Part shown: positions 1-23,368 of the stretch, piece after piece
Position numbering within the stretch: position 1 is the first letter of the stretch
Layout of the letters: each line of letters begins with the position of its first letter
Assembly: GCA_001724265.1 (NCBI GenBank)
Contig: MEDY01000169.1
Location: forward strand, 62,001-85,368
From: Rhizaria sp. SCN 62-66
Taxonomy: Eukaryota
DNA: 23,368 bases
Direction of reading: 5' to 3'
Notes under the pieces: generated by a model
What the model was told of the DNA's origin: nothing
The model's input: the letters and a program-made list of their open reading frames with translations, nothing else
The model's database searches: none
Program-made: the position numbers and the translations under genes

Positions 1-641
1 GCGCTGTGCAGTGAGCGCGGACACGATCGCGGGCACGCACAGCGAAGAGCAGAGCGCGTTGCCGCACCGGCCGCGCGCGGATGGGCTCACGACACACAGA
101 TTCTCGCGGTACACGCCCACAAGCTCACTGCTGCTGCACTCAGTGTTGGTGTTGTTGTTGTTGCTGCTGTTGTCACTGCTGTCTCCCAGAGGCGCGGCGT
201 CTGGTCCGGCGACCGGCGCCCCAGTCTGTGCGTCGACGATCCCGCCGCCCGGCGCGACAACACAGCCGGCCGAGTCTGGGATGGCGAAAGCGGCGTGGTT
301 GTAGCCCCAGGCTTCGACGTGGAAGCGCGCGATGCCCTGGTAGACGCCGAAGTGGACGAACACGCGCACGGGCTCGCAGTCCGCACTGCCAGCGCTAATG
401 CTCGAGCTAGAGTCAGGATCAGCAGTGTCACCTGTGTTGCTGCTGACATTAGAGTGACGTTTGATGTAGTCGTGGACGGCGAGGGCAGACACGGGCAGGA
501 TCTCACGGGAACGCACAGTCACATGCGGCGGCAGCACGACCTTGCCCGTCAGACTCGCCATCGCAGCATCGTCAACTACACTGGCGCTGGCACTGGCGCG
601 GGGATCAGCACTGGTCTCACTTGCACTCGAGCCGCCACCAC

Positions 642-675
<34 letters not shown>

Positions 676-1032
676 GCTCCGGGGGGGCTGGTGGCGTGCG
701 GGGAGCGGGAGGTCGGTGGTGATGCCGGTGCATGGCGGCAGCGGGGGCGCCACGACCACCGCACTCGCGCTCGCACTCGCACTAGCGCAAGACGAGCTGC
801 TGCTGCTGCTGCTGCTGTCGGCGCTGTTTTCAGCGGTTGTGTGTGTGTGTGCGTTGGTGGTGACGGGCGCGTGCGAGAGGAAAGAGTCGAGGTGGCGGAG
901 GATGTACCCCGTGGGGTTGTGGATAACGCTGCCAAACGGGCCGAAAGCGGTCAGGTACAAGTGCACGGGGCGCGGGGAACGCGCGGCCGCGGCGGCGCCG
1001 GGCGCAGAGCATGCTGGCAAGGGGGCGCTCAT
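1..1032 (-). CDS. PGPEP1: Pyroglutamyl-peptidase I (peptidase C15)-like protein, N-terminal 344 codons; continues past the left edge
   Basis: Manual translation from ATG at 1032 (in-frame TAA shortly upstream) is open to position 1. It gives VHLYLTAFGPFGSVIHNPT (C15 N-terminal TGFxPF..NP motif), EILPVS, VFVHFGVYQGIARFHVEAWGYNHAAFAIPD (catalytic Glu motif E-x4-N..IPD) and ALCSSLCVPAIVSAL. The catalytic Cys/His would lie outside the window. Poly-Ser/Asn inserts separate the motifs. Confidence 0.85.
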
Positions 1033-1405
1033 GGAGTGGCGCTGAGCAAGTAAGTGAGGAAAGAATGAGACGTATTAGCGTGATTGCGCATTGAAATGAG
1101 ATATGGCGATTGAATATAAAGTATATATTTAGTATTGTTTTGTAAAATGTGTGCTCTCAAGAAGTTAGAACGAGTTTGATGGCTGCAGAAGAGGAAATGT
1201 GTAGACTGGAGGCGGTTGTGGTCGGAAAGGCTCCGGTAAGTCAGGACGGACGCGTTTGGGAGGCGTAGTTTGGTTTAAGAAGAATAGTTCCTGTCAGTTC
1301 CGCTGGTAAGTCATATTAAATCGGTGTCAGGTATGGTAGAAGTGGGACATCTATCTGACGATAAGTGACACAAATGAACTTGAGGTCAAATAGCTGGAGG
1401 ATCTG

Positions 1406-1434
1406 TCTGTCTGGACAATCTGTCTGGACAATCT
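1406..1434. repeat. 13-bp tandem duplication (TCTGTCTGGACAA x2.2)
   Basis: Exact copies at 1406-1418 and 1419-1431, plus a partial TCT. Confidence 0.85.
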
Positions 1435-2307
1435 TTTTTCGGTACTGGGGAGCGAGGCTGGGCACTCAGTGCTCTAAGGGCTAGCTACAATACACCACGC
1501 AACTTCTCCTCTTTCGTCTTTGCAAGAAAATGCTGTGAAATCATCGTGGATCTTGTTAAGAAGTGCTGTAATACGTATTAATCGAGTGCATTTATTGATT
1601 CTAAAAGTGTAAGCTGCTGTGCGCCTGATATTGCCCTCAGATTGAGACTCAATATGGAATTGATCTTAGGGGTGCGACTTGCCTTGCTATATTAGGCTTC
1701 TACATCCGTATTATGCCAGCAGATGCTCGCTACAACCAGACATTTCTTATGAAAATGCTGATTTCTATTTATTTGCGACGATTATTTTTCATCAACAAAG
1801 TTCAACGCCCTCTTTCGTCGCATTCGCGCCCTTTACCAACTTAATACTTGTCAAACTCTCACAACGAACAACTACGACTATTTTTCTTTCTTTTCTGACG
1901 TGCCCACATTGTGTAGCCTCTACTGAATTGGTTCAGCACTTCAAACTTTACTAGCAACGCCCCAGTAGCTCTTCAATCGCTGCAATCGCGCGTGCTCTTC
2001 TACGACCGCAAGCTCCTCCACATTTTCTTACCATTCCGGTCACGGTCATCTGGAGCACTTGTGCGTCTCTCTTCGCAAGTGTAGTCGATTCGACACTCAC
2101 ACCTTTTCTGGTGCATTCGCCCAGTTTTTGACGTTATTAACTTTTCAGGTTTGTTCATAACTCACGCCTTTTCATCCTCGCAACTCTCCCTGCGTACGCT
2201 TGCTGATTGGCACTGCTTTTGACTGCTAAGCAAACACACCTGCCATAAACACGTCGCCAACGCCAGTTTCTTCTAAACTCGGGTGAGGCCGATTCTTGCT
2301 TTCTGTC

Positions 2308-5300
2308 ATGGATGTTTACAAGTATATGGCGTGCAATCCTTTTACGAACTAGAATCCGTACTACTCTTTTCTTTGCGCATCCGCTCAAGATGTAAAAAAT
2401 GTATTTGCCAAATTCACTCCAGACATTGCAAGGACTTCTATCAAAACTCTCGATGAGGCCAGACTTTTAAACCTGTTTTCGGCTTCAACTCTGGATGTGG
2501 GTGTATCCAAGGCATCGCGCACGAGGGCCAGGAAGAGGACATTTCGGAAAGCGTTCAAAGAAATGAATGAATCGACAACGAAGACTTGCGACGATGCAAT
2601 CGAGGCGTTTGGCCGGCTTACGCCAGGAAGGGAGAACTACAACATTCGCGAAGGTGTTAAGTTGCTTAGAAATGTCATCGATCAGGCTCAGAAGACACAA
2701 ACAAAGATCAGGACGGCGCGTGCTGCTTTCACAAAGCTCGTAAATTATGGTTGTGCGTATGGCGTCGAGCACTTCAAGAGCGAAGCTCACGATCTCCGCG
2801 TCAAATTCAAGCTCGTTAATCATGTGATTGAAAACTCAGAGGCCAGGAGCAGTGAGCTCGAAACTTCTTACATTAAGAGTTTGATCGATGAGATTCGCAA
2901 TTTTCTCAAAGAAGTTGAGAATTCAACTCCGCGCTGTACTCGTCGCACTCTCTCCCGATTACCTGATCGTCTTAATGTTTTCGATCCTTCTGATGAGAAA
3001 TCATTTCTCATCATTGTTGCTGAAGCTGGACATGTCGCCACTATGATCGAGTAGGCCCAGAGTCTCCTTGATGACATCGAGAACCCTGACTACAAGACCG
3101 ACACATTTCACTTGGTCACTGAAGACAAGGTTGCTCTTCAAACGCTGTCAGTGTACGCTTCGCACAGTGCGCAATGGTTGGTGAGTGCGAAGCGCGCTTA
3201 TTGGGAGCGTGATAGGGCTCGTTTGACTCAGACTCTCAAGCACTTCGAGCGCACCTCCAAGGATTGGGAATAGGCCAAACACATGACGTGTAGCGACTTC
3301 ACTATTGCGTTAACTCAGCTTTACGATCGGATGGCAATTGTTCGCCCCACCACCCCAATCCAACAGGTAAAATACGACTCTCCTTTCGAGGCGGAGCTTA
3401 ATTTGTCTGCTGAGCTACTTAAGCGGTTCAAAAACTGTTTGGATAAAACAACGGACGCCGATCAAAGTAGCTCATTTGTCGTCTTGCCACATCAAGTCCA
3501 ACTATGCTTGTTGTCAGCCCTTTGTGCTCTATTTGAGAGGTTTTCTAAATCGTTTCCAGCACTTCCTAGCGACATCCAGCTAAAAAAGAAACCGACCTTT
3601 AAAAACATCACGCAAAACGAATATTAGTGTATCTTTACGTACCGGCAACTGTATTGCTTTGTGAAGTGTCTTCGTCATAGGTTTGCTCATAATACTCATG
3701 ATGCCTTGGAAGACAAAAAGATAGTGGATGAAATGATCGAGGAAATTTATAAACGGTTGAAGAACAACCATTTACGTGTTGACGATAGCGCTTCGGGTCT
3801 TGCTGAGAAAGAGTGGCTGCTTTTCATGCGCTCTCTGCTTCGTTACTGCAAAGGAGAGTCGTCCTCCATTCTCCCCGTGCACCAGTCATCACGCGCCATG
3901 CGCGTCTGGTTTAAAGACATTGTTTATGAGCTGGCTATGAAAACAACTCTGGCTCAAAAACATGTGGACAAACTCGAAGATTCTATTTCCGCAGCAAACG
4001 GTACCGTGGTACGGATTACGAACAAAATCAATAAGAAGGCTGGCTCCATTAAACAGATCGAAGAAAATGCAGCACGCTATGACGAGGCAACAAAAGAGAA
4101 AGAGAACAAACTCAAAGGCGAACGTTCCTCTTTTTAGCTGCAGTTAAAGGAGGAGAAAGACAATGTGGCATCCTTGAAATTATAGCATCTGTGTAAAAGT
4201 GATCTCCTGCGTGCAAATGCGATGTTTCAGAAGAACGATGTCGCGCCGGCGTGGCAAAATGTTGGTGATGAGCATGTGTACCGTTTCCGCGTCGAGGCGT
4301 ATCACACGCTCTGTGACTACGTCAAACTGGACGATCAATCCCTCAATTCTCATCCTGTTGTTTGCGATAGCATCATTGCATCTCTGTTTCCTTCGTTTTT
4401 CAAAGCAGTCAAGAAATTGCCTGGGGCTGCCAACGCTCCAGCTAACTTAGATAAGGTGGGCCAGATCAGCTTTCTTAAATAGCAGCTTGAACAACTTGTT
4501 GTGCGCACTGCCCAGAAACGGACCACCTCATGTTGTGATGATGATAAATGTACACTCAAAGCTGTTTCTATTTTAAAGCACGTTGGTAATACGCTACGAC
4601 ATCGGAAGGGTGGACGTATCGTCATCAACAACAATAAGCAGCTGCAGGCGGCGTTGCAAACAGCGTTAAAATGGTTATTGACTTTATTTGGGTCAGATGG
4701 TCAATACGTATCTCGACATGAAAACGAGAAGCACGTTCGCAAAACAGTTGACAAGCTTCACACGGAGAGTGTGCTTAAAAAAAACAAACTTGAGTTCATT
4801 GGGGACGAGATCAACCGTTTTGATTTGTTCGCGCGAGTTTCTGCACAAATTTCTTGCCGGACTCTAAAAACCAATGAGAACAACGACATTAACCCACATC
4901 TCAATGTTCACCAACTGACCCGCCTGAATTGCCACCACTCATCTTGGTTAAACCTCAAAGGAACGCAAAAAACAAACACTTTTAGTACAAAGGAGAAGCG
5001 GCCCTTGTGGAAAGTATTGTTTTGGTGTGTCAAAGTTGCTGAATGTGCTTTACATCTTCTTTCTGTGCCTATCCCCGGCGACGCTCCGTCTCAGAATGCC
5101 AACGGAGTGTTGTCTGAGAACCGTGGTCCAAACCAAACTGTTCTGGCAAATCAATTGCCACCTGTTGAGGGAGGTGTTTTGCCTGCGCGGATTCAGCTTG
5201 CTCTATTGGTGCCTCATCTTCGGTTGAAGCTCAATCCTGTTTTACCTGATCAAGCAAATCGGATTCGGATATCGATAGCGTCCAACCCGTCAGTGGAACT

Positions 5301-6663
5301 GTGCCTCACTGCACGACAGATTCAAATACTCTACAAAGCTGTTGTGGATAAGTACACGACGGGAAAAGGTTGTGTTGGTGACGCCGACCTGGAGTCTATC
5401 AAGGAGACTCTGAAGGGCGAACTCGAACCCAGGCATGAGTGCCTGCACGCCAACCAGTGGTTCAGGGCAGGTGGGCGCAGCTGGAGCGCAGACTTGGACA
5501 TTACCAGCTCGCATGTCTGGTGCATCAATTGCATCCCCGGTCAGTGGGCATGGACTATGCTTGCACTGTATCATTACACGATCGACCATGTTGAAGCGCA
5601 TATGATCTCACCTGAACGTCTTGCTTGGTTTACAAACTTTTGGTTTAAGCGCAACAGCTAGCGCATCGATTCTTCACGGAAACCATACAGGCCGCATCTA
5701 ACTTTGCGCACGCCCAAAAATACTAGTTTGGAGTCGCACTACAAGAGTTTCAATCGTGATATCCAATGTCTACAAACGGACATTGTTCAGTCACTCTACT
5801 CTGGATTCCTGATGTATCAAAACCGTTCGTTTGTCATGGGATTTGTGCTGCGAATGATGTCATTCTTCGATCGTTTTCTGCGTAATTGTCTAGAACAGTT
5901 TTTTACTGGGCTCCCGACTTAGTTCTCTCGATTATTTCGTATTTTACTTCACAAGCGATCAACGCAGGTGAACAATGGCCTGTCTGGCGACGTGCTGCTG
6001 TTCACACACGAAGAAAATGACCTATATCCAATTCTAAGTAGTGTTGTCTGTGCTCGTGGATTAAATCGAGTTGAAACCGCTTTCCATGACGTCGTAAGCT
6101 TACGCAATATGTGTGCACACGCTGACTATGACAATTGGGGGATTCCTGCTTTTGACCTTGACGCTGATAAGCTTTCAAACCGAATTTTGACGCATTGTCC
6201 CGAACAGCTCGTGAAGTACCTCCATCTTCATTACTTTGCTCGCTCTCAGCTTCCGCACTGTCCCTTAAGGCCGGGGGTTAAAATCCCCGCAAATGGGCTT
6301 GCTAACAACATGTCTCGTCAAATATTCAATGTTAAATTTCCGAAATCTATGTTCAACGTACATTGTAGTGTAATATCACCAATCAATGGGCTCAAATATA
6401 TGAGGGATTGTATCACAAAGTGTACAGATGATTTTTTTGCCACTCCTGAAGAGGTGGTGAAGGAGAACCTTTCCGATGCCGTCCGGGAAATTCCCGGGCT
6501 CCGTGACAACGCTGGTTGGGTGCTACTTGTGTTGCCGCAACTATTACTGGAGCTCGCACACCTGCTGTCACAGACACGCATCCCCGCAAGTCATGATAAG
6601 AGAAAGGTTGACGGGTACGAGGCTGAGTTGGAATCGTGGCTTAAGCTCGGCAATTCAACGTGA
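2308..6663 (+). CDS. 1451-aa helical protein with two HEPN-like R-x4-H motifs, encoded through nine in-frame UAG codons
   Basis: ATG at 2308 (upstream in-frame TGA at 2284). Frame +1 is open to TGA 6661-6663 except for TAG at 2350, 3052, 3271, 3625, 4135, 4183, 4480, 5659 and 5920. Gaps between the track ORFs translate as normal-looking protein (e.g. MIE*AQSLLDDIENPDY, FLK*QLEQLVV). Motifs: RHRFAH 3673-3690, GNTLRH 4585-4602, RNMCAH 6103-6120. Coiled-coil-like segment ~3950-4200. Confidence 0.8.
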
Positions 6664-6834
6664 TGCAAAGCAACCTGGTGCGTAATATCAACCAATCCCG
6701 ATATTATATCTATCGCAATACCCACGCTTGAAGCAGTGATATTTTGCCTGATGCTTTCGAAATACTTCTATGTATTTAATAACACGTGCCTGAATATAAT
6801 GTGTATTTTTAATATGAAACGAACAAATAATAAC

Positions 6835-7036
6835 TGTACGTACCGGACGGAGTAGTGCATTCCATCATCCGTACTAGTACGAGTACGTACGTCCTTAATT
6901 TGAAATACAAAAATCTCCTACACACGATTTAAGCTATTTCCGTGGACGTATGATTACGTACGTAAGACTTACTACGTACATAAGTCACAACTGAGTGTTT
7001 ACACAATCACCATACGAAACCGTCCGAGTGTGTACA
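6835..7036 (+). ncRNA. Candidate structured RNA, or MITE-like fold-back element
   Basis: 6835-6850 pairs with 7020-7036 (16 pairs including two G.U, one bulged A at 7027). Internal helices are TACGTCC/GGACGTA, CGTATG/CATACG and GACTTA/TAAGTC, with several perfect palindromes. No evidence of transcription. Confidence 0.3.
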
Positions 7037-7965
7037 TATTGAAGGCGAAATCCGGTGAAAAACACGTTAGCCCGTCATCCCGCCGTCGTCTTGTTTTGTG
7101 TAGGTAGCTGTGAGGTTGCGTAGAATCCTTTTGTGGTCATATCGTTATGTACTGTGAGATTTAGCTATAAAATTGCATTTTTAGGCCTACATCATCGTGT
7201 TGATTTGTCGGCAATATCAATGGAAATCCCATTGTCGTGCGATGTGGCCGGTTGTGTCGAGCTACGTGCTTCCAGTGTATTGACGTTGGCCTATTCAAAT
7301 ACGCACACACGCTCTTGAACGGTTTCACCATGAATATATTGTCACAGAGGAGGTATCCAAGTGTCACATTCTAATCTCCAGATTAATGAGTGATACACAG
7401 CACAGCAAACGTCAGTCATACTTGAAATGCGCTAAGAAACATATAAAAACAGTGTGCAGTACTTAGAAAATTCAATAATAAAGCAATACTAATATTACTA
7501 TAAGTTGCTAACTCAAAAATTGTCACCAAGTCAATTCAGCTTCTCCTATTTCCAGTTCCCACGGTATTGGTTTTTTCGAATCTGGTGACCGTTGCAAGCG
7601 CCAATCTATCCGCTCTATTTTCTTGCCCATACCATCACCCAGTCGTAAAATATCACAATTGAAATCAAACCACGAATAAATCTCTGCTAATTTCAAATTA
7701 AAATCTTTCATCTCTTGCTTTAACCCCGCCAACTCACCTCTCCTCCATTGCCCGCCTTCGCACTCCCGCCTCTTTCCCCACTCTCCCCACCCGCTCGCTC
7801 CCGCTCTCCCCTCAGCACCCCACTCTCCCAAACTACCCTCCAAACCTTTTTATTGCTCGTGTATAGCTTTTCCTTGTCTCAGCTCCCCGAAACCAAGCGT
7901 TCCTCCGCTCTCTCGCACACTTCCAACCCGCTCTAGCAAACTCTGTCCTCACTCTTGCTTGCTTG

Positions 7966-8001
7966 CTCGCCGACCACAACCATCTCGCCGACCACAACCA
8001 T
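7966..8001 (+). repeat. 18-bp tandem duplication overlapping the start codon
   Basis: CTCGCCGACCACAACCAT at 7966-7983 and 7984-8001. The first copy is followed by C, the second by G, forming the ATG at 8000. Confidence 0.85.
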
Positions 8002-9524
8002 GTCCCGCACCCAGCCTCGCTCTATGCCTCCCCCGCCAATTACGGCGCGCCGTTCGACGGAGAACGTGCTTGACGACGCCCAGCGCAAGGCCCTCCAGGC
8101 CTTCGACGTCTCTGGCGCCGCCACCGCGTCCCCCAACGCGTCCGGAGGCTCGTCGCCCGCCGCGCCGTTCGATTTTGCCTCGCTGTTCCGCGCCCCCGAG
8201 GAGAAGCCCAAGTCTAAGCCCCGCGCCTACCCTGCCGCAACCTCCAGCTCTAGCTCCAGCATGTCCACCACCACAACCACCACGACGACGACGACTGTGA
8301 ACAAGGCTGGCGCCTCTCCCGCTGGCTCTGCCTCTGGCTCTGCCTCTGCTGCGGGCCGGCCGAGCGTGTCGCACATGCTGGACGCGATGCGCAACACCCC
8401 CAGCGGCGGCGGCAAGCTCGGCGGCGGCGGCCGCACTGCGGGCGACTTCCTGGGCGCTCTTGACCCGTCCGTGCTGGCCGTGCTGCACCAAATGGCAGGC
8501 GACGAGAGTAATCCTTCTGCTGCGACCGGCACGCGTGCGGTCAGCTACTCTGAGGACGAGGACGACGAGGAGTCTGAGGAGCCCGCGCCCGCGCCCGCGC
8601 CCGTGGCTGTGGCTAAGAAGGGCGGCCGCAAGAGCCTCGGCGTCCCCGCTGCTGCTGCTAAGAAGGGTAAGCAAGCTGAGGCCGAGGCCGAGGAGGAGGA
8701 GATTGAGGTCGAGTCCGTCCCCTCCCGCCGCCGCGCCAGCGTCGTCCCTGCTGCCACTACTGGCGGTCGCCGCAAGTCTGTTGCGCCTGCCCCTGCTCCT
8801 GTGGCAGCGGGCCGTCGTGTGACCCGGTCCCGCGCCCGCGCCGCCCACGACGACGACGACGCCGACGAGGCCGCTGCCGCCGCCCCTGTTGCCGCCGCCG
8901 CCACTGGCAGCCGCCGCAAGTCAACCACCGCCACCGCCGCTGCCCCTGCTCCTGCTCCTGTGGCAGCTGCGACAGGCCGTGGTGCTGCCAAGCGCGTCTC
9001 TGCCGCCGCCACCGCTGCTGCTGCTGCTGCACCGAACGCCAGTGTGGCCGATTACGACGAGGACGAGGACAACGGCGATGAGCTGCTCGACCTGGTGCCG
9101 CGCCTGGACACTCTGTTCCCGATCAGCCCCTCCAACGGCAGCAGCCGCCGCCGCAGCCGCTCGGCACGCAACTACGACGACCTCTTTGCCGCCGCACCCA
9201 TGGGTACCGTTACGGGTACTGCTGACAGCGCGCTGGTGGACGACGTGCTTAAGAGCGTGGGGGCCGACCTCTCCGCAATCACCGCCTTCGCCAACAACAA
9301 CATCAACAACAACAACAGCGGCAGTGGCAACGGCAGCGGTAGTAGTAATGGTGTCGCCGGCGCAGCGGCAGGCGCTGCTAAGAGCGGCGTGGCGGGGGTC
9401 AACTCCGCCACCGGTGCTAAGGCCCTCAACCTGTCTGCGCCAGTGCTGCTGCTGCTGGCTGCGCTGGCCGTTGTCGCCGCCGTCGTCGCCAGCTACGCAG
9501 CCGCGGCCGCCACCGCAAGTCCGG

Positions 9525-9555
<31 letters not shown>

Positions 9556-9880
9556 CGCTGCGTACGTGGCCAGTCCCGTTCCCAACACGGCTGCCGCCGC
9601 TCCTGCTGCTCCCGCTGCTGTGCCTGCTGCTGCGCCTGCTCCTGCTGCTGCTCCTGCCACTCCCAACGCCCCCGTTGCCGCTGCCGCCGCCGCCGCTCCT
9701 GCTCCTGCTGCGCCTGCCGCTGCCGCTGCCACTGCTCCCGCTGCGGCGGCCGCGGCGGCTGCTGCTGCGGCCTCGGCGGCGGCGGCCAAGGCGAAGGCTG
9801 CGGCGGCTGCCGCGACCGCAGCCAAGGCTGCCGCCGCTGCGGCCGCGGCCAACAACGCGAACGCCGCTCCTCGCGTCTAA
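8000..9880 (+). CDS. Hypothetical 626-aa disordered protein with basic RRxS/RKS motifs, one predicted TM helix and an Ala/Pro-rich tail
   Basis: First ATG of the 7955..9880 frame is at 8000, with strongly GC3-biased codons. It ends at TAA 9878-9880, where composition shifts abruptly. Hydrophobic stretch VLLLLAALAVVAAVVASY ~9443-9496. Confidence 0.75.
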
Positions 9881-10956: not shown

Positions 10957-13900
10957 ATGGCCGACAACATCGACCTCGTTGCCCTCATGGCCGAGACGAC
11001 GCCAGCGACGCCAGCGGCTACAGCGATGCCAGCCAACAGCAACGGCGCCAGCAAGGGTGCAGTGCCTGCCCCGCTTGCGGTCACGACCCTGTCGCCCGCC
11101 CCGTCCGCGCTGCTGTCCCCGCCGCAGACGCCCGCCCCGGCCCCCGCCCCCTTACTATCGGACGCCTCTTTCTCCGCGCTCCTCTCAAGCCTCTCCAACT
11201 CCAACAGCAGCACAAGCAACAACAGCATCAGCAGCCGCAACGCCACGACGCTGGCGCTGGCCCGGCACCTGTGGACCGCGCTGTCTCGCCGCCCTCTGCC
11301 ATATCTCCCCCACACTCAAGCAGCGAACAGCAACAACAGCAACAACGCCAATGCCGCCAGCGCTGGCTCTGCCTCTGGGGGCGACGTCGCTGAGAGTGAC
11401 GACGTCGCCTTCTGGCGCCGGTTCGTGGCTACCATCCCCCCGCCCAACGCCACGGCCACTTACCTGGCGTCCAAGGGGCTGCTTCTGGCCGCGGTCGACC
11501 GGCGCATCGCCGCCGCCGCCGCCGCCGCCGCCGCGAACGCCGCCGCTGGCACAAATGACGGCGACAACGACGACGCTGACGCTGCTGCTGCTGCTGCTGC
11601 TGCTGCTGACAACATTAGCGACGACGGCATTGACATTGCTCTCGAAGCCGCCTCTCCTCAGCACAGCAACCCCAACGCCAACTCCGCCAACAACGCGACA
11701 GGCAGCCGGGGCGCTTTCTCGTCCTTCTTCGGGGCCTCGGCCGCCGCCGCCGCTGCCGCCGCCGCGGCCGAGGCCGCCAAGGTGTCCATCACCGCCCGCA
11801 GCATCATCCGCGACGCGCGGCGCACGCCCGTGCCCCCGGTCGGTCTAAGTACCGCCGGTCTAAGTACCCCGGGCAGCAAGGGTGTAAGTGCCTCTGAAAG
11901 TACCCCGCGGTTCGACTGGCGGTCCGTGGCGCGCGTCGTCGCCCGCTACTGCGATGCACACACGTTCCTCAACAGCCACAACCCAAACAACAACAACAAC
12001 AACAGCAGCAGCGGCAGTATTGGCAACGCTCTGAACGCCGCCACTGCGGGCGATGTTGGTAGCGAAGACAGCGGCGGCGGCGGGTTCTGCTACTACGTGC
12101 AGGGGATGACCGACGTCGCCGTCGTCGCCCTCACCATCGTCAGTCTAAGTACCCCCTTAGCCGGCGTAAGCGCCCCCGCGCTCTTCGCGGCCGAGAGTGC
12201 CGCCGTTACCCTGCTCACGACGCTGGCGAGGGCCGAGCCTGCGCTTGCGCTGGCCTGGGCTGGCCGGCCCTTAGAGCTACCGACGCCCTCAGAGGCCGCC
12301 AGCGCGGTGAGCTGCACGGACTCTGCCGCCGCCGCCACTGCTGCTGCTACTAACAGCGCGAAGAGCGCCCACAGTGCGAAGAGCGCGAACATCGCGAACA
12401 CCACGCTCCTGTCCCTGCCCTTTCCCTCTGTTTCCAACTCGAGCGCCGCCGGTGTGCGGGTGTCTGTGCCCGCCGCGGCCGCCGCGACCGCGGCCGTGCT
12501 GGCTGTCTTGTGGCGTTGCGACCCCGCGCTGGCCCGGGCTCTTTCACTGCCCCGCGGCCACTCGACCGGCCCCGCGAACGGTCACTCGGGAGAGAGTGAC
12601 TCGAAGGGGGTGGCGGCGGCGGCGGCGGCTGTTGAAGGGGGCGCGTGTTATCAAAGTCAAGCCGCGCTGACGGCGATGCTGGCGGGGTGGGCGCACAGTC
12701 TGTGCGTGCGGGCCCTTACACCCGCGGCACTTACACCTGCGACCCTTACATCGACGCAGTCGCCGTCCCCTCAGACCGAAAGCAGAGCGAGCGTCAACGT
12801 CAACGTCGATGTCAATGCAAGTGCGGGGGCGAACGGTGCTGCGGTGGGCTCTGTCGCCCCCGTCTTGTCACTATGGCGGGCCATGCTAGCCAACGCCAAC
12901 ATCACCAGCACCGTCACGAGCAGTTCCAGCTCTGCCTCAGCCTCTGCCTCTGGCTCCGGCTCTAGTTCGAGTTCGAGTTCGAATGACAACAGTGAAGGCA
13001 GCGGGGGTCTGATGCTCTGGCTAGCCATGGCGGCGCTGACGGCCCGTCGCGACTGCATCATCGGCGCGCGCAACGGCTCCAATAACGCAAATACCAACAA
13101 AAACACCCCTGCTGATGCGAATTGCAGTAGTGATAGTAGTTCCGCGGGCGAGACTGGTGCAGAGGCAGTGGCTTCGGTCATCTCCCAAATCGCCCGCGAC
13201 CCCCTCGACCTGCGCCAGAGTCTAAGCACCGCCTCCAATGTAAGTACCTCCACAGCGAGTCTAAGTGCGAATGAGTCCGGCTGTGCCGCGTCGCTGCACC
13301 GGCTGGCTCTGCTGCTGCACACGGCGAATGTGACTCGCACCGCGGCGGGCGCCCTGCTCCGGGCCGTCGTCGCCGCCGCCGCCAACGCCAGTCACTCCAC
13401 TAGCGCGAACTCTAGCCACGGTAACACCGCTGGGAGTAGCAATGCGAGTGCTGGTATGGGCGGTGTGCTACTGGCGTCCATCGTGTACAACTACGATCCG
13501 ACGCTGTTCACCGCCAGCAGCTGCAGCAGCAGCAGGAGCCGCCGTAGCAGCTCGGTCGCCGCCGCTCCCCACGGCAACGGCGGTCTCGGCCTCAGCCTTG
13601 GTCTTGCTCTGGGCTTGCCGCTGCTCACGGTCACTTCGGCCGAGGCGGCGGCGCTGGTGGCCGCCGAGTGCCCGTCGCTAGCGTTGCCCCACCTGCTCGC
13701 GGCTACTAAGCACAACAACAGCAGCAACAACAACAACATTCACTCCAGCTCTACTGCTACTGCTGGTAGTGACGCTGAGGCCAAGACCGAGGCGGATGAC
13801 GTCGCTGTTACCGCTGAGTCGGCTGAAGCCAAGGCCGCGGCTGCCGAGGCTGACGCCAAGGCTAAGGCCGACGCCGCCGCCGCATCAGAGGCCGAGGCCG

Positions 13901-14823
13901 AGGCTGAGGCTGCTGCAATGACGGCACGCGTCCTGGCCGTGGCCGCCGCTGCCGCCGCCCAAGCCGAGGCCCAGGGCTGGGCGCCCGTCCCCCTCACCAC
14001 TGCAGTCACCACCAAGCTCGTCAAGTACGCGCTCTCGCTCCTCGACAACCCCGCTAGCGACTCGAATGCCGCTGTGTCGGCTTTCGTCGCGAGCGTCTCG
14101 GCCCCAAGCGGCAAGGCTGACTCTGCCATCTCCGCCTCCACCTCCGCTGCCGCTGCCGCTGCTGCTGAGGCTGCTGAGGCCGCCGCGGTGTTGCTGGCCC
14201 GCACCTTGTTCCCGGCCTGTGCCTCGGACGCCTCCGCGCTCGCCGCGGCCGCGCCAGAGACGGTGGCGGCCGCGGCGGCGCTCGTGGCGGCGCTGTCCCC
14301 GGCCCCCGCGCCGTACTACTACAGCCGCAGTCGCATTGGCCGCGGCAGTGGCAACGGCAAGAGTGGTGTTAAGAAGGCTAGCAAGAAGGACAAGAAGGCG
14401 CAGACGGGCAGCAAGCCTCCGGCGACTGTCGCCTCTGGCGAGAGCAGTGAAGCCGAGGCCAAGGTGTCTACCGCCAATACCACCGATGGTAGCAGCAAGG
14501 ACACCAAGCCTGCTGCTGAAGCTGCTGCTACTGCCAAGGTCCAGGCCAAGGCCCAGGGCACCGATGAGGCTGACGATTTGCTGGCCGACTTGGCCGCTCT
14601 GGGCATCGATGTGGCCGGCACCAAGACCGCGAAGGCGGTCGAAGCTGAGGCGTCCAAGGCTCAGGGGGCCGCCGCTGAGGGCGCGTCTAAGGGTGTCGAT
14701 GCGAAGTCTAAGGGGGGCGACCTGGACGACTTGTTGGCCGACTTCGACTCTCTCGTCGCTGCCGTCAAGACTACTAAGGATACCGCCAGCGAGCCTAGCG
14801 CCGCTGCCACTGCTGCTGCTGCT

Positions 14824-14858
<35 letters not shown>

Positions 14859-15997
14859 CACTGCCAATGCCGCGATTGCGGCCGACATTGCTGTTGAGGA
14901 CGAGAACGACGACGGCGACGACGACGACGATGATGACGATGATGACCAAGAGGAGGATGACACGTTTGAGCTCTCGTCTGCGCTGTCCCCGGCCGCCTGT
15001 GAGCAGGGTACTTACACCCCGTCTAAGGGCTTCGGCTCCTCGTGGCTGCAGCTGCTCTGGCTTCTGTCCCCTTTGCGTCACCGCCCTTTCCTGCTTCTGG
15101 CCTCGGCCGCCGCCTCGGCCGCCGCCTCCGCCAGCGCCGGCAACGGCAGCGGCGCTGACTGCGACAGCGTCGGTGGCGCCAACTCGAGCGCCAGCGCCAG
15201 CGGCAGTGAGAATGGCAGTGTTGTTAGCAGCCGCAGCAGCAGCGACTGCATTGCGAAGGCGATTGTTATCGACCTGTGTCCTGCGCTCGAGGCCGCCGCT
15301 GCGGCCGCAGTTGCCACCACCGTCGCCGCCAGTTCGCGCTCCCGCTCCAGCTCGTCTTTCGCAGTCAACAACGACGACAATCCAAACAATAAGACCAGCA
15401 GCGATGACGCCGCGAACGCGAATAATGACGCGGCCGACGCCAGCAGCAGCGCAGACGCCGCTGCGAAGCTCCCCTCTCACTTGCACTCGCTGTCAGGGCT
15501 GCTGGCGGCCGCCACCGCCGCCGGCGAGATCGCCGCTGCCGCGCGCCCCCTGCGGCCGGTCGTCGTCCGCCTGCCACTGTTCCTCTCCCACCTCAGCAGC
15601 GGCCACGGCAGCGCCGCCGCTGGTGACGCCGAGGCCGCCGCTGCTGCGGCGACGGAGGCTGAGAGCACGAGCAGCAAGCTGTTGCGCTGGGTGCGGCGCC
15701 CGCGCTCCCAGTCTGCCGCCCCCGCGCCCCATAGTGGCGAGGCGGGGGCGCTGGCGCAGGTGGTCGCCGAGGTGACGGCGGGCGCCGCGGCTGCGGTCGG
15801 GCTTGTTGCGCGGCAGCTGCTGACGGAGACGCTGTGCCACGCGGTCACAGTTGTCTGTGTGCCCACCGTCATCTCGCCGGCGATGCTCGCGATGCACTGC
15901 AACAACAACAACAGCAGCAGCAGCAGCAGCAACGCTGTTACGGCGAGTGATGCCGCTGCCGCCGCCGCGACTGAGAGCACAAACACTGATTCTGGTG

Positions 15998-16030
<33 letters not shown>

Positions 16031-16363
16031 AGAACACAGAAGTCAAGCCGGCTTCGTCGGCCGCTAGCGCCGAAGTCAAGCCGCTGCCGCCGACGCGCCT
16101 TTTCCTCGTGCGTCGTCGCGTCGTCTTCCCCGAGACGGAGTCCGATGACACTGCCAACGCCGCTGCCGCCGCCGCCGCCGCCGTTGCCGAAGCCTCCGCG
16201 AGCGGTAACGCTGCGACTGCTGTCCAAAGCAGCGCCAACTCTACTCTCGCCGCCGCCGTGGCCGCCGCCGCCGCCGCCGCCGCCGCCGCGGCCGCGGCGA
16301 GTGGGGGCGGCAACAACCGCTTCCTGGCGGGCGCGCTCACGGTCAGCGCACAGGAGGCCCAGG

Positions 16364-16394
<31 letters not shown>

Positions 16395-19278
16395 GATCGG
16401 ACGCGGGGCCGCGCTGAGCGACGGTGACGACGACGAGGAGGACGATGACATCGGCGCCGGCGCCTTCCGGTTCCACGGTCTCGACGACTCGGACTCGGAC
16501 TCTGGCTCGGACTCGCGCAGCGCCAGCGCCAAGGGCAAGGCCGGGTCTAGAGAGAAGGCCGGAGCTGGCGGCGGCGCCGGCAGCGCGAAGACGGCCGAGG
16601 TGGGTCACAGCGACGGCGAGAGCGACCTGGAGGACGACGACGACGCTGCCGGCGTCAGCGGCCTGCACTTGAACATCATGCTCCGCTCTCCGATTCCCCG
16701 CAGCAACAACAACAATAGCTCTAGCAACGCCAGCGGCGGCAGCAGCGCCAACGGAAGCCGCAGAAGCAGCCTCGCCGGCGCTGGCGCTGGCACTGGCGGG
16801 AGCAGTCTCACCACGAACTCCGCGGTCTCGAACGGCGTCGCCGTGCCTGGTGCGGGCACCGAGACGGTGGCCGGCGCGCTGCGACTGCTGGCGAGCGACT
16901 GGCTCTGGTCGCTGCTGCTGCTGCCCGCGTCGGAGCTGTCCGGCGCGCCTCTGTTCCCGGTCCCCGGCACGGACGTCGAGGCCGGCGTCATTACGAGGGA
17001 GGTGCTGGCCACGGACCCGCTGTTGCTGCGTCTCCTCACCGCCGCAGACGCCGCTGACGGCGACGGCGACTCTGGCCGTGGGAGCGACGAGGCTGAGTCC
17101 ACCGCCAAGCCTGCTGACGGCGGCGACAGCGCTGCCCGTCAGACCGAGTCCGACGGTAAGACCGAGAGCGGGAAGGCCGAGACCGGGGTTGCGCCGCCGG
17201 CGAGTCTGGCGGCCGTGGGCGGCGCCAAGAGCGTGTTGGCCCGCGCCGGCGGCTCGAAGCGCGAGCTGCTGGCCGCGGCCCAGGCCGTGCTGGCGAACGC
17301 GGCGCCGGTGCTGCAGCCGCGGCGCAGCGTCCGCGCCCACGCGCCCCACATCCCCTACTTTGCTCTCACTCGAGCCAGCGGTTTCGGCGCCAGCGCCAAT
17401 GCCAGCGCCAACGCCAACCCCAGCACTGGGCAAAGCGACAGCGAGGACGAGAACGACTCTACCGCCACTGCCACTGCCACTGCGACCGCGAGCGCGAATG
17501 CTGCGGTAAGCGGGGGGGCCTGTGTGCTGGTGCGGTTGAGCGAGGTGCCCGTGGGACCCGAGCACGCCGCCGCCGTCGCAGCCTCCGAGGCCCGGCTGCC
17601 CGCCTTCTTTGCAGAGGTCCAGGCGCTGGCGCGGCGGCGGCGCGCGCGGCAGCGGCATGCGGCCGAGGCCGTGCGGCGCGCGGAGGAGGAGGCCGCCGCC
17701 GCCGCGGCCGCTGCAGCTGCAGCCGCGGAGGCCGAGGCCGCAGCCGCCAGGGCCGCAGCCGCCGCAGCCGCCGCCGCGGCGAAAGAGAGCTCTGGCGGCG
17801 GCTTTGCGTCGCGACTGCGGATGTGGGGCAAGAAGGCCGCCGACAAAGTCGGCACCGCGCTCGACACCGCCCTGGAGAAGGCCCTCGCCCCTAGCCCCGC
17901 GCTCGGCGGCCACGCCGGCGGACTCGTCGAGGGCGGGGTGGCGGCCGCCACTGGCAGGCTCCGGTCCTCTACGGCCCTGCGGCGGCTCAGTCCGGCCGAG
18001 TGGGAGGCGCGCGAGCCTGGACGAGTCTGGGTCAACCTGGCGGACCTGGCGTCGTCGCCGGAGGTCGGCCTCTTCGTCGTCTACGAGGCGCGCCGCGCGC
18101 ATAGTAGCGAGGCGGGGGCGGGCTCCCATAGTAGCGAGGCGGGGGTGTTGCGGCGCGATGGCGGGCGCACGGTGTTCGTGCCGCGCGTGCTTGTGCTGTC
18201 GCGCGTGCGGCTGCTCGTTCTCTCGCTCCCGGTGGCCAGCGACTACGGACTTGTCCGCCCCCGCGCGCCTGCCGCCGCGCTGCCCCACAACTCGAACAGC
18301 TCGAGCCTGAGTCCCGCGCACAGCGAGACGACGGCGACGGCCACCATCTCGCCCTTCGTCTCCCCTTCGTTCGGCGCCAACGCCCGCTCCCCGACTGCCG
18401 CTACAGGGCCCGCGGTGGTGGCGGCGCGGCTCGAGGCCCGTCTCTCGCTCCGCACGCTCGACCGCATCACGCGGTCAAAGCAGCGGCCTGCGCAGCTCGC
18501 CTTCTACTGGCGTCAGCAGCCCTCTAGCAACAGCAACAGCAGCAGTTTGACTGGGGCCGTCACCGGGGAACGGCGGTACGTGGTGGTGCTTCCGAACGCT
18601 GCCGCCGCGCACGACTGCGTGACGATCTTCACGCGGATGTATCAGAATCTGATCTCCAGCTCGGCATCGGCCTCCACTGCCGCCGCCGCCGCTGCTCCTG
18701 CTGCTGCCGCTGCCTCTGAGTCGAGTGATGCCGTGAACAGTAGTGAGTCTCCCGCGAGTGCTGCTGATGGCAGTGCCAAGAGCGAGGACAGTGCTACGGC
18801 CGCCGAGCCTGCTGCTGCTGCTGCCGCTGTTGCTGTTGAGTCGGGCCGGAGCAAGGCTCTGGACCTGGCCAACGGCAGCAGCAACAGCAGCATCCCCAGC
18901 ACTGCGTCCAACACCACCCCTACCAGCACCACTGCGTCCAACACTGCATCCGCGAGTGCGAGAGCGAACGCTGCGCCTGCGCCTGTGCCTAGCAACGACC
19001 TGAACGCTGCCGTCGTGGCCGCCGCGGCCGCCGCCGCCGCGACGACTACCAGTGCCGCCAAGTTCATGATGACCGCCAACGCCACCAACGCGAGCAGCAG
19101 CAACAACAACGCTAACACTAGTTCTGCGGGCAAGCCTGCGGTGGCGTCAGGCGCGGCCGTCGCCGCGGCTGCGGGCGCGCGCGCGACGGCCGAGGCTGCG
19201 CCTGGCGCCTTCTCGCTGCTCGGTGACGACGCCGCGCTCGGCGACGACGACGACGACGATGACGAGGAGCTGCCTTGA
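10957..19278 (+). CDS. TBC1D23: TBC (Rab-GAP) domain protein with TBC1D23-like architecture (TBC, rhodanese-like, C-terminal PH-like), heavily expanded by low-complexity inserts
   Basis: 2773-codon uninterrupted ORF ending in TGA. TBC motifs: IIRDARRT (11803-11826), YYVQGM (12091-12108), LWRCDPALARAL, GWAHSL, VLSLW. Rhodanese-like AIVIDLCP (~15259-15282). The C-terminal block VLVLSRVRLLVL...ARLEARLSLRTLDRITRSKQRPAQLAFYW...RYVVVLPNA (~18025-18654) resembles the TBC1D23 PH-like domain as I recall it. The TBC call is strong; orthology is moderate. Confidence 0.75.
14801..14858 (+). repeat. GCN trinucleotide run encoding poly-Ala (representative of many in the window)
   Basis: (GCT)n(GCG)n tract. 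Similar GCC/AGC/AAC/GAC runs occur throughout the GC-rich genes, e.g. 641-678, 9530-9560, 11510-11535, 16261-16298, 16364-16394. Confidence 0.9.
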
Positions 19279-19507: not shown

Positions 19508-21658
19508 TCACGCCCAATCGTCGTCATCATCATCACCGTTATTGCGATTGCTCTCCGCCTTAGTATCGACCCCCATCACTCTCGCACTCGAGCTTGAGAT
19601 CGAGCTCGAGCTACTGCTGCCACCGCCGCTGCTACTCGCGCCGCCAACCCCCGAGCCCCCGCCCCCGGCCGCGGCGCCGGCGCCTGCGACAGTAACGCCC
19701 GCCGCGGCCGCCTGGTGGAGCTGCAGCGCGGTGGCCTTGAGCAGCCTGCGCGCGCGCACAACGAGCGGCTGCCGCAAATCGAAGTCGGCCGCCACGCGCT
19801 CCCGCAGCGCCGCCAGCGCCGCCGCCGCGCTCGCGGCAGACGCGCTGCTCCCCGTCCCGGTGTGAGCGCTGTTGGCGGCGGCGATGGCGCGCTGGGCGCG
19901 GACGCCCTTGGCGCGGAACTGCTCGTACACGGTCTGCGCTTGCTGCAGCCAGGCCGCCAGCGCGTCGAGGGAGCGCGCACGGAACGCAACCTCGCGCCGC
20001 GCCCAGTCGACGAGACTGCCGCTCGCGACACGGCCGCTACTCGCAATCGCCCCAGAGCTGTTGTCGGCGGCGCCAGCGGCGGCGCCAGCGGCGGCGGCAA
20101 TGGAGGCGCCAGCGGCGGCGACGGCGGCCGTCCAACCCCCGGAGACACGTGAACTCGCACTCGCTGTCGCACTGCTCGGATCGCTAGCATTGGTAGCACT
20201 GCTCGTGTTGTAAGGGGCGGGCACGGGGGCGCGGAGGCGCGCCTCGACCTCCGCGAGCAGCGTGGCGACGCCGGCCATCTCGGCCGCAGCGGCGGCGTCG
20301 GCCTTGGCGTCGGCGGCCCGCAGCACGCGGGACACACCCCCGGGGACACTGCTCGCCGCTGCCGCCGCCGCTGCCGCTGCCGCTGTATTGCCAGATCTTG
20401 TAGCAGCAGCAGCGGTGGTGGCGGGGGCGTTACTAGACTTGGAGCGGACACCAGGGCCGGCAGGGACGGGGGCGGTGGCAGCCGCGGCAGCGCTCATAGC
20501 AGCAGCGGACGGCAGCAGCTGCTGCTGCTGTTGCTGCTGCTGGCGCTGCTGGTGGAGCTGCTGCTGCGCGGCGCGCGAGAGCGACTGCTGCTCGAGCGCG
20601 GCCCGCACCCGCTCGCGCATCTCCAGCGGGATCGCCGGCGCCACACGCACGCGGCCGCTGCTGCTGCTGCTGTTGGTGTTGTTGTTATACACGGTGGTCG
20701 AGCTCGCGCTGGCGCTAGAGCTGGCGATGTTGGCCGCAGCAGCAGTAGCAGTCGGGGCAGTCGGGGCAGGACGCTTGGCGCGAGAGCTGCTGCTTATATC
20801 ACTGCTACCGCTGCCAGTGCCAGTGCTAGTACCGCTGCTGGTGGCTGCAGCGCTGTTGGCGCCGCCGCTGTGGGCGCCGCTGATGCTGTGCGTGTGGTGG
20901 TAGGACGACAGCAGCGCGGAGGGCCGGTTCGGCGCGGTGAGGAACTTGCTCTGGCCCGGCAGCGACACCGCCGATAGGGGCGCCAGCGCCGCCGCCCCCG
21001 CCCCCGCCGCCCCCGCCCCGGCGCCTGCGCCGCCGGAGCTGCTCGAGCTGGCACTCGCGCTCGCGCTAGCGGCGCTGAGAGGCGAGGACAGCGAGGACAG
21101 CGAGGGCCGCGCCGCAGCGGTGGTGGCGGCGCGGGCGACGAAGCGGCCGGCAATGGCGCCAGCGACGGTGAAGCGGCTCGCGCGCGCGCCCGCGTCAAGC
21201 GCGGCCATCAGAAAGGCTGTCGCCTCGTCCTCCTCGGCCTCCGCGGCGGGGTCACGCGCGGCGGGGCGAGGTCCGGCCTGGAGCGCGGCGGCGCGACCAA
21301 GGTGCTCCGCGGCCGGGTCCCAGGGCGCGGCGCGGTACAGGAAGCAGCTGGAGGCGCGCTCGCGCGTCGCGTCCAGCTCGAACAACGCGCTGCCAATGCG
21401 CAGGCGCGCGCGGCGGTCGCCCGCTGCGCTGCCTGGGAGCGTGAGGGAGGCGGCGGAGTCCGCGCTGGAGGCGTCCGAGGGAGAAGGGAGCGAGACGGAG
21501 CCCGTGGGGGAGGACTTGAGGGCGGACACGAGCTGCTCAGCAATAGGGAGTGGAAGCCGAAAGAAGTAGGACGCGCCGCACTGCGCGGAGTCGCGCGCGG
21601 GGCCCGCCAGGTGCGAGGGGCCGACGACGACATGCTCGTTCGCGACGGTGGTGCTCAT
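19508..21658 (-). CDS. Probable RNA polymerase II elongation factor ELL-like protein (ELL N-terminal-like region plus C-terminal Occludin/ELL-like helices)
   Basis: 716-aa ORF from ATG 21658 to TGA. The N-terminal blocks YFFRLPLPIAEQL, RLRIGSALFEL..CFLYR, FTVAGAIAGRFVAR and EMRERVRAALEQQSLSRAA follow the order I recall for ELL N-terminal domains. The C-terminal amphipathic helices LDALAAWLQQAQTVYEQF and LRERVAADFDLRQPLVVRARRLLKATALQL fit an Occludin_ELL bundle. The CDS is secure; the product call is tentative. Confidence 0.6.
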   Translation of the reverse strand: MSTTVANEHVVVGPSHLAGPARDSAQCGASYFFRLPLPIAEQLVSALKSSPTGSVSLPSPSDASSADSAASLTLPGSAAGDRRARLRIGSALFELDATRERASSCFLYRAAPWDPAAEHLGRAAALQAGPRPAARDPAAEAEEDEATAFLMAALDAGARASRFTVAGAIAGRFVARAATTAAARPSLSSLSSPLSAASASASASSSSSGGAGAGAGAAGAGAAALAPLSAVSLPGQSKFLTAPNRPSALLSSYHHTHSISGAHSGGANSAAATSSGTSTGTGSGSSDISSSSRAKRPAPTAPTATAAAANIASSSASASSTTVYNNNTNSSSSSGRVRVAPAIPLEMRERVRAALEQQSLSRAAQQQLHQQRQQQQQQQQLLPSAAAMSAAAAATAPVPAGPGVRSKSSNAPATTAAAATRSGNTAAAAAAAAAASSVPGGVSRVLRAADAKADAAAAAEMAGVATLLAEVEARLRAPVPAPYNTSSATNASDPSSATASASSRVSGGWTAAVAAAGASIAAAAGAAAGAADNSSGAIASSGRVASGSLVDWARREVAFRARSLDALAAWLQQAQTVYEQFRAKGVRAQRAIAAANSAHTGTGSSASAASAAAALAALRERVAADFDLRQPLVVRARRLLKATALQLHQAAAAGVTVAGAGAAAGGGGSGVGGASSSGGGSSSSSSISSSSARVMGVDTKAESNRNNGDDDDDDWA

Positions 21659-22459: not shown

Positions 22460-23368
22460 ATGGCACCCTACCACCGCGACCAGGGACAGTCTCCCCGTCT
22501 AACTTCGCTGCTAACGGCTATGTTCCTACTGTTGACACTTATGTGGTGTTTCTGCGGCCTCGTCTCGGCTCTCCCCACCCTGGCGTCATTCCGCGTGACT
22601 TTGGAGAACCCGTCCCTGCGCAGCCTTTATCTAGGTTACACTTGGTACAACATAACCTCTCTTCTGCCAAATGCGACGAACAGTGCCGTAATGACGCGCT
22701 GTAATGGCGCGCCAGACGCTCTTCGCTATATTGAGGGCACTCGGGGTTATCATTCTCCGACCGCTCCGATGCCAGCCGGAGCAACGGTGTGGGAGGAATC
22801 CGTCACTCCGGTGGACAAAACCTACATGTCAATTGTTTACCGCGCTGCGTCAACGAAGGAGATGTCATGTTCGATTTATACCCAGGACGGAACAGTACAG
22901 CTCGCCAGTGAGTCTATTGTCCAGCAAACAGCTCTGCGGCGTGTGGCGCAGGTCACGGTCTCCACGACGGGAACGACATTCACCATTCCGGACCAGGCGA
23001 ACACGGTACAGCTGTACTCACGCACAGACAAGTACGAGATAGCGGGCCCTACGTTGCCAACATTTGCGCTTACAAAAGCGTCCGCGGTATACTACACCAT
23101 GACTAAGACGACGACGCCGACGATTACATATGTCGTGGCGCCAAAGTTAGACGTCTTCGCATCGACACTCGCGCCGGAGCTGACAAGCTCGTCCGTGATG
23201 GTCAGCGCAAACGTCACTGTGAGGCTGTACTCGAGTAGCCGCACCATTGTCCTTACACCCGCGGCGCCAACCTTTGTGTACGTCACCAACACAGACGTGA
23301 ACAACTTCGCGACATCCAAATGGAGTCTCGCGCTTTCGCCCACAATCTACTCGGACTGGATCATCGCC
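22460..23368 (+). CDS. Secreted or cell-surface protein with signal peptide, Thr/Ser/Val/Tyr-rich; first 303 codons, continues past the right edge
   Basis: Manual translation of frame +2 from ATG 22460 (context gcaATGG, as at 10957; upstream in-frame TAA at 22271): MAPYHRDQGQSPRLTSLLTAMFLLLTLMWCFCGLVSA|LPTLASFRVTLEN... open to the window end. N-glycosylation sequons NIT, NAT and NVT. Confidence 0.8.
   Translation, partial: MAPYHRDQGQSPRLTSLLTAMFLLLTLMWCFCGLVSALPTLASFRVTLENPSLRSLYLGYTWYNITSLLPNATNSAVMTRCNGAPDALRYIEGTRGYHSPTAPMPAGATVWEESVTPVDKTYMSIVYRAASTKEMSCSIYTQDGTVQLASESIVQQTALRRVAQVTVSTTGTTFTIPDQANTVQLYSRTDKYEIAGPTLPTFALTKASAVYYTMTKTTTPTITYVVAPKLDVFASTLAPELTSSSVMVSANVTVRLYSSSRTIVLTPAAPTFVYVTNTDVNNFATSKWSLALSPTIYSDWIIA

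Follow-up and report, generated by a model that had tools for sequence, protein, structure and literature searches.

Does a gene that is broken into pieces by nine amber codons encode a single-chain eukaryotic ribonuclease (RNase) with two HEPN motifs? The question is raised by a stretch of 23,368 nucleotides from Rhizaria sp. SCN 62-66 (contig MEDY01000169.1, positions 62,001 to 85,368 of the forward strand), referred to below as the window. An earlier reading of its sequence, called here the original prediction, had described a read-through product of 1451 residues carrying two HEPN-like motifs in a Cas13-like layout. The follow-up analysis yielded a solid recoded orphan gene, whose HEPN signal, judged from the sequence, is respectable but unproven. 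Our preferred reading, to which we give a probability of roughly 45%, is that the gene may encode a fast-evolving, lineage-specific RNase of a defence or stress type, with one or two divergent HEPN domains, in a microbial eukaryote that reads UAG as sense.

A conserved frame of 1451 codons

The gene occupies positions 2308-6663 of the window (plus strand), which form one frame of 1451 codons when TAG is counted as a residue. This frame holds nine TAG codons but neither a TAA nor an internal TGA, and terminates at a TGA; the other five frames over the same positions hold 44-103 stops apiece, and a random frame of this length would be free of TAA and TGA with P = 5e-24. The nine TAG codons, spanning positions 2350-5922 on the plus strand, begin at nucleotides 2350, 3052, 3271, 3625, 4135, 4183, 4480, 5659 and 5920, corresponding to residues 15, 249, 322, 440, 610, 626, 725, 1118 and 1205. 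The encoded protein is rich in His. The DNA of the gene is present in bioreactor and wastewater metagenomes, and eight contigs of run X3, from another study, cover all nine TAG codons with zero differences, which rejects an assembly error as their source.

Relatives that are 6-13% diverged were found in runs X4 and X7, the latter probably a run of DNA. The listed alignments to relatives comprise 26 of 33 pieces, 14 of which, from X4 and X7, fall inside the frame. Non-zero net indels were multiples of three in 13 of 13 cases (nine gapped pieces and four intervals between X4 pieces), though some of them are common to X4 and X7, so that the 13 are not wholly independent. The two pieces extending beyond the frame have net indels that are not multiples of three, and conservation of the frame in the relatives extends over about 3.8 kb. 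In run X4 the 3' part (window 6025-6660) is present in two copies that have diverged from each other and may be paralogs or products of recombination. Because the relatives keep the frame and a second study shows the same nine TAG codons, we conclude that the gene is real and fast-evolving, with TAG as a sense codon; it is also apparently intronless. The read-through product described in the original prediction is thus real, and its claim that standard annotation misses the gene owing to the amber codons was borne out as well, since gene callers using translation table 11 fragment it, leaving five pieces with 100% self-identity in the protein database.

Outside the X4/X7-type relatives, no homolog was found in protein, metagenome, viral or prokaryote genome searches. 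A phmmer search with residues 300-1451 against 1.84 billion representatives returned five matches, all of them 100% self, and word-indexed sequence searches gave no match or self only. The metagenome scan yielded a single identical 1.8-kb contig, and the viral and prokaryote genome scans no match. A tblastn search of plasmids with three modules of the protein gave five matches with expectation values (E) of 2-9; the two that span a motif were examined and rejected as chance matches, lying antisense to a gene or in the frame of a glycosidase. No internal repeat was detected in the protein by blastp.

Two HEPN-like motifs

In HEPN chemistry, two motifs are needed side by side to make one RNA-cutting site. 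Motif 1 (R456-H461, RHRFAH within LRHRFAH; positions 3673-3690, plus strand) and motif 2 (R1266-H1271, RNMCAH within LRNMCAH; positions 6103-6120, plus strand) were located at the residues given for them in the original prediction. The bare pattern R-x4-H is weak by itself, occurring eight times in the protein as compared with 3.1 times in shuffles. The strict pattern R[NHQ]xxAH, on the other hand, is present twice, with an expectation of 0.028 (P = 0.0002, 20,000 shuffles). Both R456 and R1266 conform to the HEPN consensus R-x4-6-H with a polar second and a small fifth residue, and both motifs also satisfy the rule described for Las1, according to which the second residue is polar, the fourth hydrophobic and the fifth small (10.1101/760058).

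The motifs and their upstream helices were scored with a matrix covering 12 upstream and six motif positions, built from six HEPN families with 60 real sites in total. Rows L168 (wrong orientation) and L209 (partial hit) had been excluded from the training set; of the 80 rows left, 10 lacked a motif that could be anchored. The matrix ranked R1266 first in the protein, with 22.1 bits, and R456 second, with 11.3 bits, close to the median score for real HEPN sites (10.9 bits when each family is left out in turn). Among 5000 shuffles of the protein, none reached the best score, two reached the second and none reached the pair; nor was the score of the second-best site attained in any of 43 natural chunks of 1451 residues. 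At least 11.3 bits were found at nine of 138,922 natural positions, the top two being members of HEPN families and five being HEPN sites by eye. None of 93 LRNxxAH controls from unrelated proteins reached 22.1 bits, and when the upstream helix alone was scored, R1266 exceeded 93 of 94 controls. By these scores, motif 2 ranks as a good HEPN-like site, and motif 1 as average.

Modules surrounding the motifs

Each motif lies in a candidate HEPN domain. Module 1 (residues 360-486; positions 3385-3765, plus strand) is predicted to consist of two helices, an insert, a helix closing in motif 1 and a further helix. The RiboL-PSP-HEPN profile matched it with 12.5 bits over 130 residues, a score reached by 7/300 and 5/300 shuffles (unfiltered). 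A weak match to phrog_30951, a family of unknown function, spans motif 1 (E 0.004, residues 437-500, window 3616-3807). Module 3 (residues 1141-1296; positions 5728-6195, plus strand) contains motif 2 and an AbiF/Abi2-like motif helix; hhalign of Abi_2 members against this module gave a probability of 33% and an E of 4.5e-4, over 23 columns only.

Single-sequence AlphaFold models had a predicted local distance difference test score (pLDDT) of 36 and a predicted template modelling score (pTM) of 0.25 for residues 300-1451, and a pLDDT of 55 and a pTM of 0.48 for residues 355-520, values too weak for judging the fold or the distance between the motifs. The helix order predicted round each motif is compatible with HEPN. 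It had been proposed that each motif ends an amphipathic helix; in both models a predicted helix does end at R456, but R1266 is three residues beyond the helix end (in the model with pLDDT 36).

No HEPN match was found in Pfam, PHROGs, PADLOC, NCBIfam or PDB sequences. The silence of Pfam is weak evidence, because real-looking HEPN domains of three bacterial proteins also escape it. These proteins (L036:329-937, plus strand; L046:572-1420 and L097:166-621, minus strand) contain HEPN-like motif helices without a Pfam HEPN match, and in L046 a CBS domain precedes the HEPN-like motif helix.

Between the two candidate domains lie long charged helices (residues ~547-642; positions 3946-4233, plus strand), which are coiled-coil-like and hypervariable, give weak matches to coiled-coil families and overlap a stretch (residues 549-654) that is not alignable at 80% to X4. 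They are followed by module 2 (residues 654-795; positions 4267-4692, plus strand), which resembles DUF4145 by eye and contains K-x2-GN-x3-H at residues 757-765 (KHVGNTLRH, nucleotides 4576-4602). This sequence had been taken for a GNxxxH variant of the DUF4145 type, a claim that the tests do not support: a matrix for GN-type sites gave it 12.2 bits, reached by 81/5000 shuffles, whereas six of seven real sites scored 22.5-35.3, and the scores of domain profiles on module 2 were matched by 204/500 and 139/500 shuffles. It has a Lys where the DUF4145 type has an Arg, and the pattern R-x2-GN-x3-H within a DUF4145 domain was not found in the module.

HEPN domains or chance motifs

A series of observations weighs against the HEPN reading. 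With regard to the site scores, the 11.3 bits of R456 were reached by 29 of the 93 unrelated LRNxxAH sites, and the score of R1266 dropped to 15.7 bits when the Abi2 family was removed from the matrix. On the upstream helix alone, R456 scored like non-HEPN controls, and R1266 was outscored by R1312, which has no HEPN-like context by eye. The motif pair was moreover picked out of a very large scan, a selection by which rare coincidences are inflated. As for the domains, the profile result for module 1 (7/300) was the best of 18 tests, and hhalign gave at most about 2% for all pairs other than Abi_2 and module 3. When the upstream helix was held fixed, 199 of 300 block shuffles equalled the Abi_2 score of module 3; as far as these alignments indicate, the HEPN similarity ends at the motif helix. 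The relatives add two points: the His of the third motif is one place later in run X7 (read by hand), and in one X4 copy two residues are inserted in motif 2, turning it into R-x6-H. The latter form is within the R-x4-6-H consensus, but is unexpected at a tightly held catalytic site. Both X4 copies have the substitution A1270G, which would be tolerated since the small-residue rule permits Gly (10.1101/760058). The Arg, Asn and His of motif 2 were unchanged among the differences to relatives that were listed, which are 40 of 565 and form a biased subset from the last 200 codons; the alignments extend over motif 1 as well, which lies outside this subset.

The bare motif, finally, is a poor marker. 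LRNxxAH sites were drawn at random from prokaryote genomes, 120 in all; the 43 whose proteins could not be placed by eye were scanned, and a Pfam HEPN domain was present in one of these proteins. Roughly another five resemble HEPN by eye. Among the remaining 77 sites, many are in proteins that we take, by eye, to be CheA-type kinases or ABC permeases, so that an LRNxxAH at a helix end is presumably common in non-HEPN proteins.

These points lend themselves to another explanation, namely that the product is a non-RNase orphan, a helical protein with coiled-coil parts that serves as a scaffold or in interactions and is subject to relaxed or diversifying selection, the motifs being chance products of the large scan. 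It agrees with the lack of any family, homolog or domain-level alignment in our searches, with the eight R-x4-H in a His-rich protein and with an indel within motif 2 of a relative that is about 10% diverged. It does not account well for the pair of scores, which was equalled in 0/5000 shuffles, for the second-best score, equalled in 0/43 natural chunks, or for the position of R1266 above all 93 motif-matched controls. We regard this explanation as a serious one, with somewhat less than an even chance of being right.

The presence of at least one real HEPN domain appears, from the sequence scores, to be nearly an even bet. If the preferred reading of a divergent HEPN RNase is correct, the blocks at R1266 (the stronger case) and R456 (the weaker one) would be divergent HEPN domains, in each of which a motif of the form R-[N/H]-x-hydrophobic-small-H closes the third helix; the block in the middle would be a helical domain that is decayed or has no catalytic function. 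Two motifs would meet to form one metal-independent site, cutting RNA to leave a 2',3'-cyclic phosphate; the pairing could take place between two chains, as is usual, or within one, as in Cas13. Such a toxic RNase would be restrained until a trigger, for instance viral infection. A role in conflict or defence is plausible because the rapid change and the lack of homologs match what is described for HEPN expansions in eukaryotes (PMC3710099).

The self-contained dual-HEPN RNase that had been proposed is retained in part: no other site in the protein is as HEPN-like as the two motifs, which stand above shuffles, but no whole-domain HEPN alignment or family match was obtained. Its full form, in which one Cas13-like active site is formed within one chain, we consider unlikely. 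The same degree of doubt applies to the most far-reaching version, a single-chain eukaryotic RNase whose two intact HEPN domains would make one active site, an arrangement demonstrated to date for prokaryotic proteins of the Cas13 type. It would act as an AbiF-like defence effector in an arms race and be hidden from gene catalogues by the nine amber codons, in a lineage whose UAG-only code is unrecorded, and the rare codons might serve as a brake on the toxic product.

TAG as a sense codon

If stops were placed at random, the chance of all being TAG would be P = 3e-5, by which the random stops of a pseudogene are rejected as the origin of the nine codons. Introns are rejected too: a consensus in-frame donor lies within 120 nucleotides at one of the nine TAG, no splice-like joint was seen, and indels are multiples of three. 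As to the residue, codon 1443, read by hand, is TCG in the window; of the two X4 copies, one has TAG there and one has CAG, and both stay in frame beyond it. Because of this exchange Gln is favoured over Trp, and TAG probably encodes Gln, an assignment resting on one TAG/CAG site. A context model applied to the nine TAG sites had no power to separate Gln, Leu and Trp, and no tRNA was found in the window.

We considered the possibility that the TAG codons do not reflect a genome-wide code, but are true stops, intron ends, Trp codons produced by A-to-I editing or gene-specific leaky codons throttling a toxic protein. In its favour, TAG accounts for 0 of 81 Gln codons in five neighbouring genes as compared with 9 of 64 in the target (Fisher P = 4.5e-4; P = 0.02 after scaling for the GC bias). 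The uniform identity of the nine codons argues against it, as do several other observations: all four genes that are complete in the window end in a codon other than TAG; donors are scarce and the indels are multiples of three; the TAG/CAG exchange at codon 1443 favours Gln over Trp; and the rhizarian exLh is described as reading UAG as sense and yet lacking it in half of its ribosomal-protein genes (PMC5304391). We consider this possibility quite improbable. UAG as sense with UAA and UGA as terminators was observed for this gene and its relatives, and from the sequences a genome-wide code with UAG as sense is likely. Amber use may be confined to weakly biased genes, the neighbours being without TAG.

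Reassignment of UAG only has been reported from a few lineages (PMC11687900; PMC9161772). The present case is like the codes of NCBI table 15 (Iotanema spirale, Hartmannula sinica, Trochilia petrani, Protocruzia tuzeti), in which UAG is sense and UAA and UGA end genes, and other UAG-only codes are described in which UAG is Leu (rhizarian exLh) or Ser (Scotinosphaera) (PMC5304391; PMC11687900). It differs from the known UAG-only lineages in a coding GC content of about 70% and the absence of apparent introns in the window, and in that the evidence comes from one gene with its relatives and the residue from one site. Independently of HEPN, it would represent a eukaryote that reads UAG, and not UAA, as sense, a code known from few lineages.

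Variation among relatives

Among the listed differences, 30 in-frame changes alter 29 codons, nine synonymously and 20 non-synonymously. As synonymous sites make up 23%, the substitution ratio for these changes in the last 200 codons is about 0.7, which is near-neutral. Residues 319-369, 549-654 and 828-897 are not alignable at 80%, yet remain in frame. Since these unalignable stretches fall between predicted helical blocks, the pattern suggests conserved helical domains connected by hypervariable linkers. That the gene is instead a decaying HEPN relic, still in frame and no longer catalytic, like the dead pair of Swt1, and perhaps binding rather than cutting RNA, would fit the near-neutral ratio, the insertion in motif 2 of one X4 copy, the shift of motif 3 in X7 and a GC content at third codon positions (GC3) of 0.49, near the intergenic 0.43-0.45 and unlike the 0.66-0.83 of the neighbours, but is very improbable in view of the motifs being intact in the window copy and of the strict frame over ~3.8 kb without TAA or TGA in 1451 codons, which shows ongoing selection on the product.

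The two X4 copies differ in further respects. One contains a tandem repeat of about 18 nucleotides near 6474-6486 that includes an in-frame TAG; in the other, a 20-nucleotide insertion at 6656 alters the C-terminus.

Comparison with known systems

Motif 2 and its upstream helix match the LRN-x-CAH helix of members of the Abi2/AbiF/AbiD group (Pfam Abi_2, PF07751) over 23 columns. Unlike those bacterial proteins of about 300 residues, the product is a eukaryotic protein of 1451 residues that has no Pfam match, and no Rfam RNA is nearby. With Cas13 and non-CRISPR intramolecular HEPN dimers it shares a long, mostly helical chain with R-x4-H in the centre and near the C-terminus. In contrast with Cas13, no similarity of sequence or fold was found, the models being weak, and there are no CRISPR repeats, cas genes or known RNA: no CRISPR array was detected in window 1033-7996, and the window has zero Rfam matches. 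No similarity to Cas13 was detected in Pfam, NCBIfam, PADLOC or PDB sequences; Cas13 being divergent, this lowers the case for membership, not that for resemblance. The Cas13-like layout described in the original prediction is kept as a resemblance of layout only, and neither an array, nor a known RNA, nor sequence similarity accompanies it. The HEPN domains of Cas13an are described as grouping with AbiD/F, in a report that describes 12 dual-HEPN clusters (PMC12165695).

The protein shares a eukaryotic host with the HEPN proteins Swt1, CXorf38/Ava_2192-like, DZIP3-like and Las1, and two HEPN domains in one chain, here candidates, with Swt1. The statement that eukaryotic HEPN proteins carry one domain per chain has to be corrected, as Swt1 is listed with two HEPN domains that form an inactive dyad (PMC3710099, Table 1). 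The Swt1 pair is inactive and fused to PIN, whereas the motifs of the present protein look intact and no PIN, NACHT, TPR or kinase match was found; an Swt1-like profile scored no better on it than on shuffles. Several eukaryotic HEPN families are described as lineage-specific, with a proposed role in defence (PMC3710099). In the literature searched, no active single-chain HEPN pair from a eukaryote was found.

If the HEPN reading holds, the gene would encode a eukaryotic RNase that carries a pair of apparently intact HEPN motifs on a single chain, and the intramolecular design of the Cas13 type, or at least that of AbiF-like suicide RNases, would extend to protist defence. If the motifs are due to chance, there would still be an orphan gene with recoded TAG codons, and with it a candidate for one more case of an already known code. 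In either event, the gene illustrates how recoded genes are lost from catalogues as fragments broken at stops.

Other genes in the window

The window is eukaryotic, apparently without introns. The neighbouring genes are GC-rich and of low complexity, and the spacers have about 44% GC. A pyroglutamyl-peptidase-like gene with inserts rich in Ser, Asn and Ala (1-1032, minus strand, open at the left end) has no Pfam match, but has an atlas score of 0.90 in eukaryotic clusters, with PF01470 on 66% of the cluster members. A gene for an Ala/Pro-rich product of 627 residues (7997-9880, plus strand) contains one hydrophobic segment, ends in TAA and has no Pfam match. The next gene (10957-19278, plus strand) encodes a low-complexity product of 2773 residues and shows neither apparent introns nor TAG. 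A YxQGMxD stretch in it presumably recalls TBC (Rab-GAP) domains, though Pfam found nothing. A product of 716 residues (19508-21658, minus strand) has ordered N- and C-terminal parts, which to our mind recall the elongation factor ELL and its occludin-like domain; no Pfam family of the ELL/occludin type was found in it. The last gene (22460-23368, plus strand, open at the right end) has no Pfam, NCBIfam or atlas match; its product, which has a hydrophobic segment at the N-terminus and a body rich in Thr, is possibly a surface protein.

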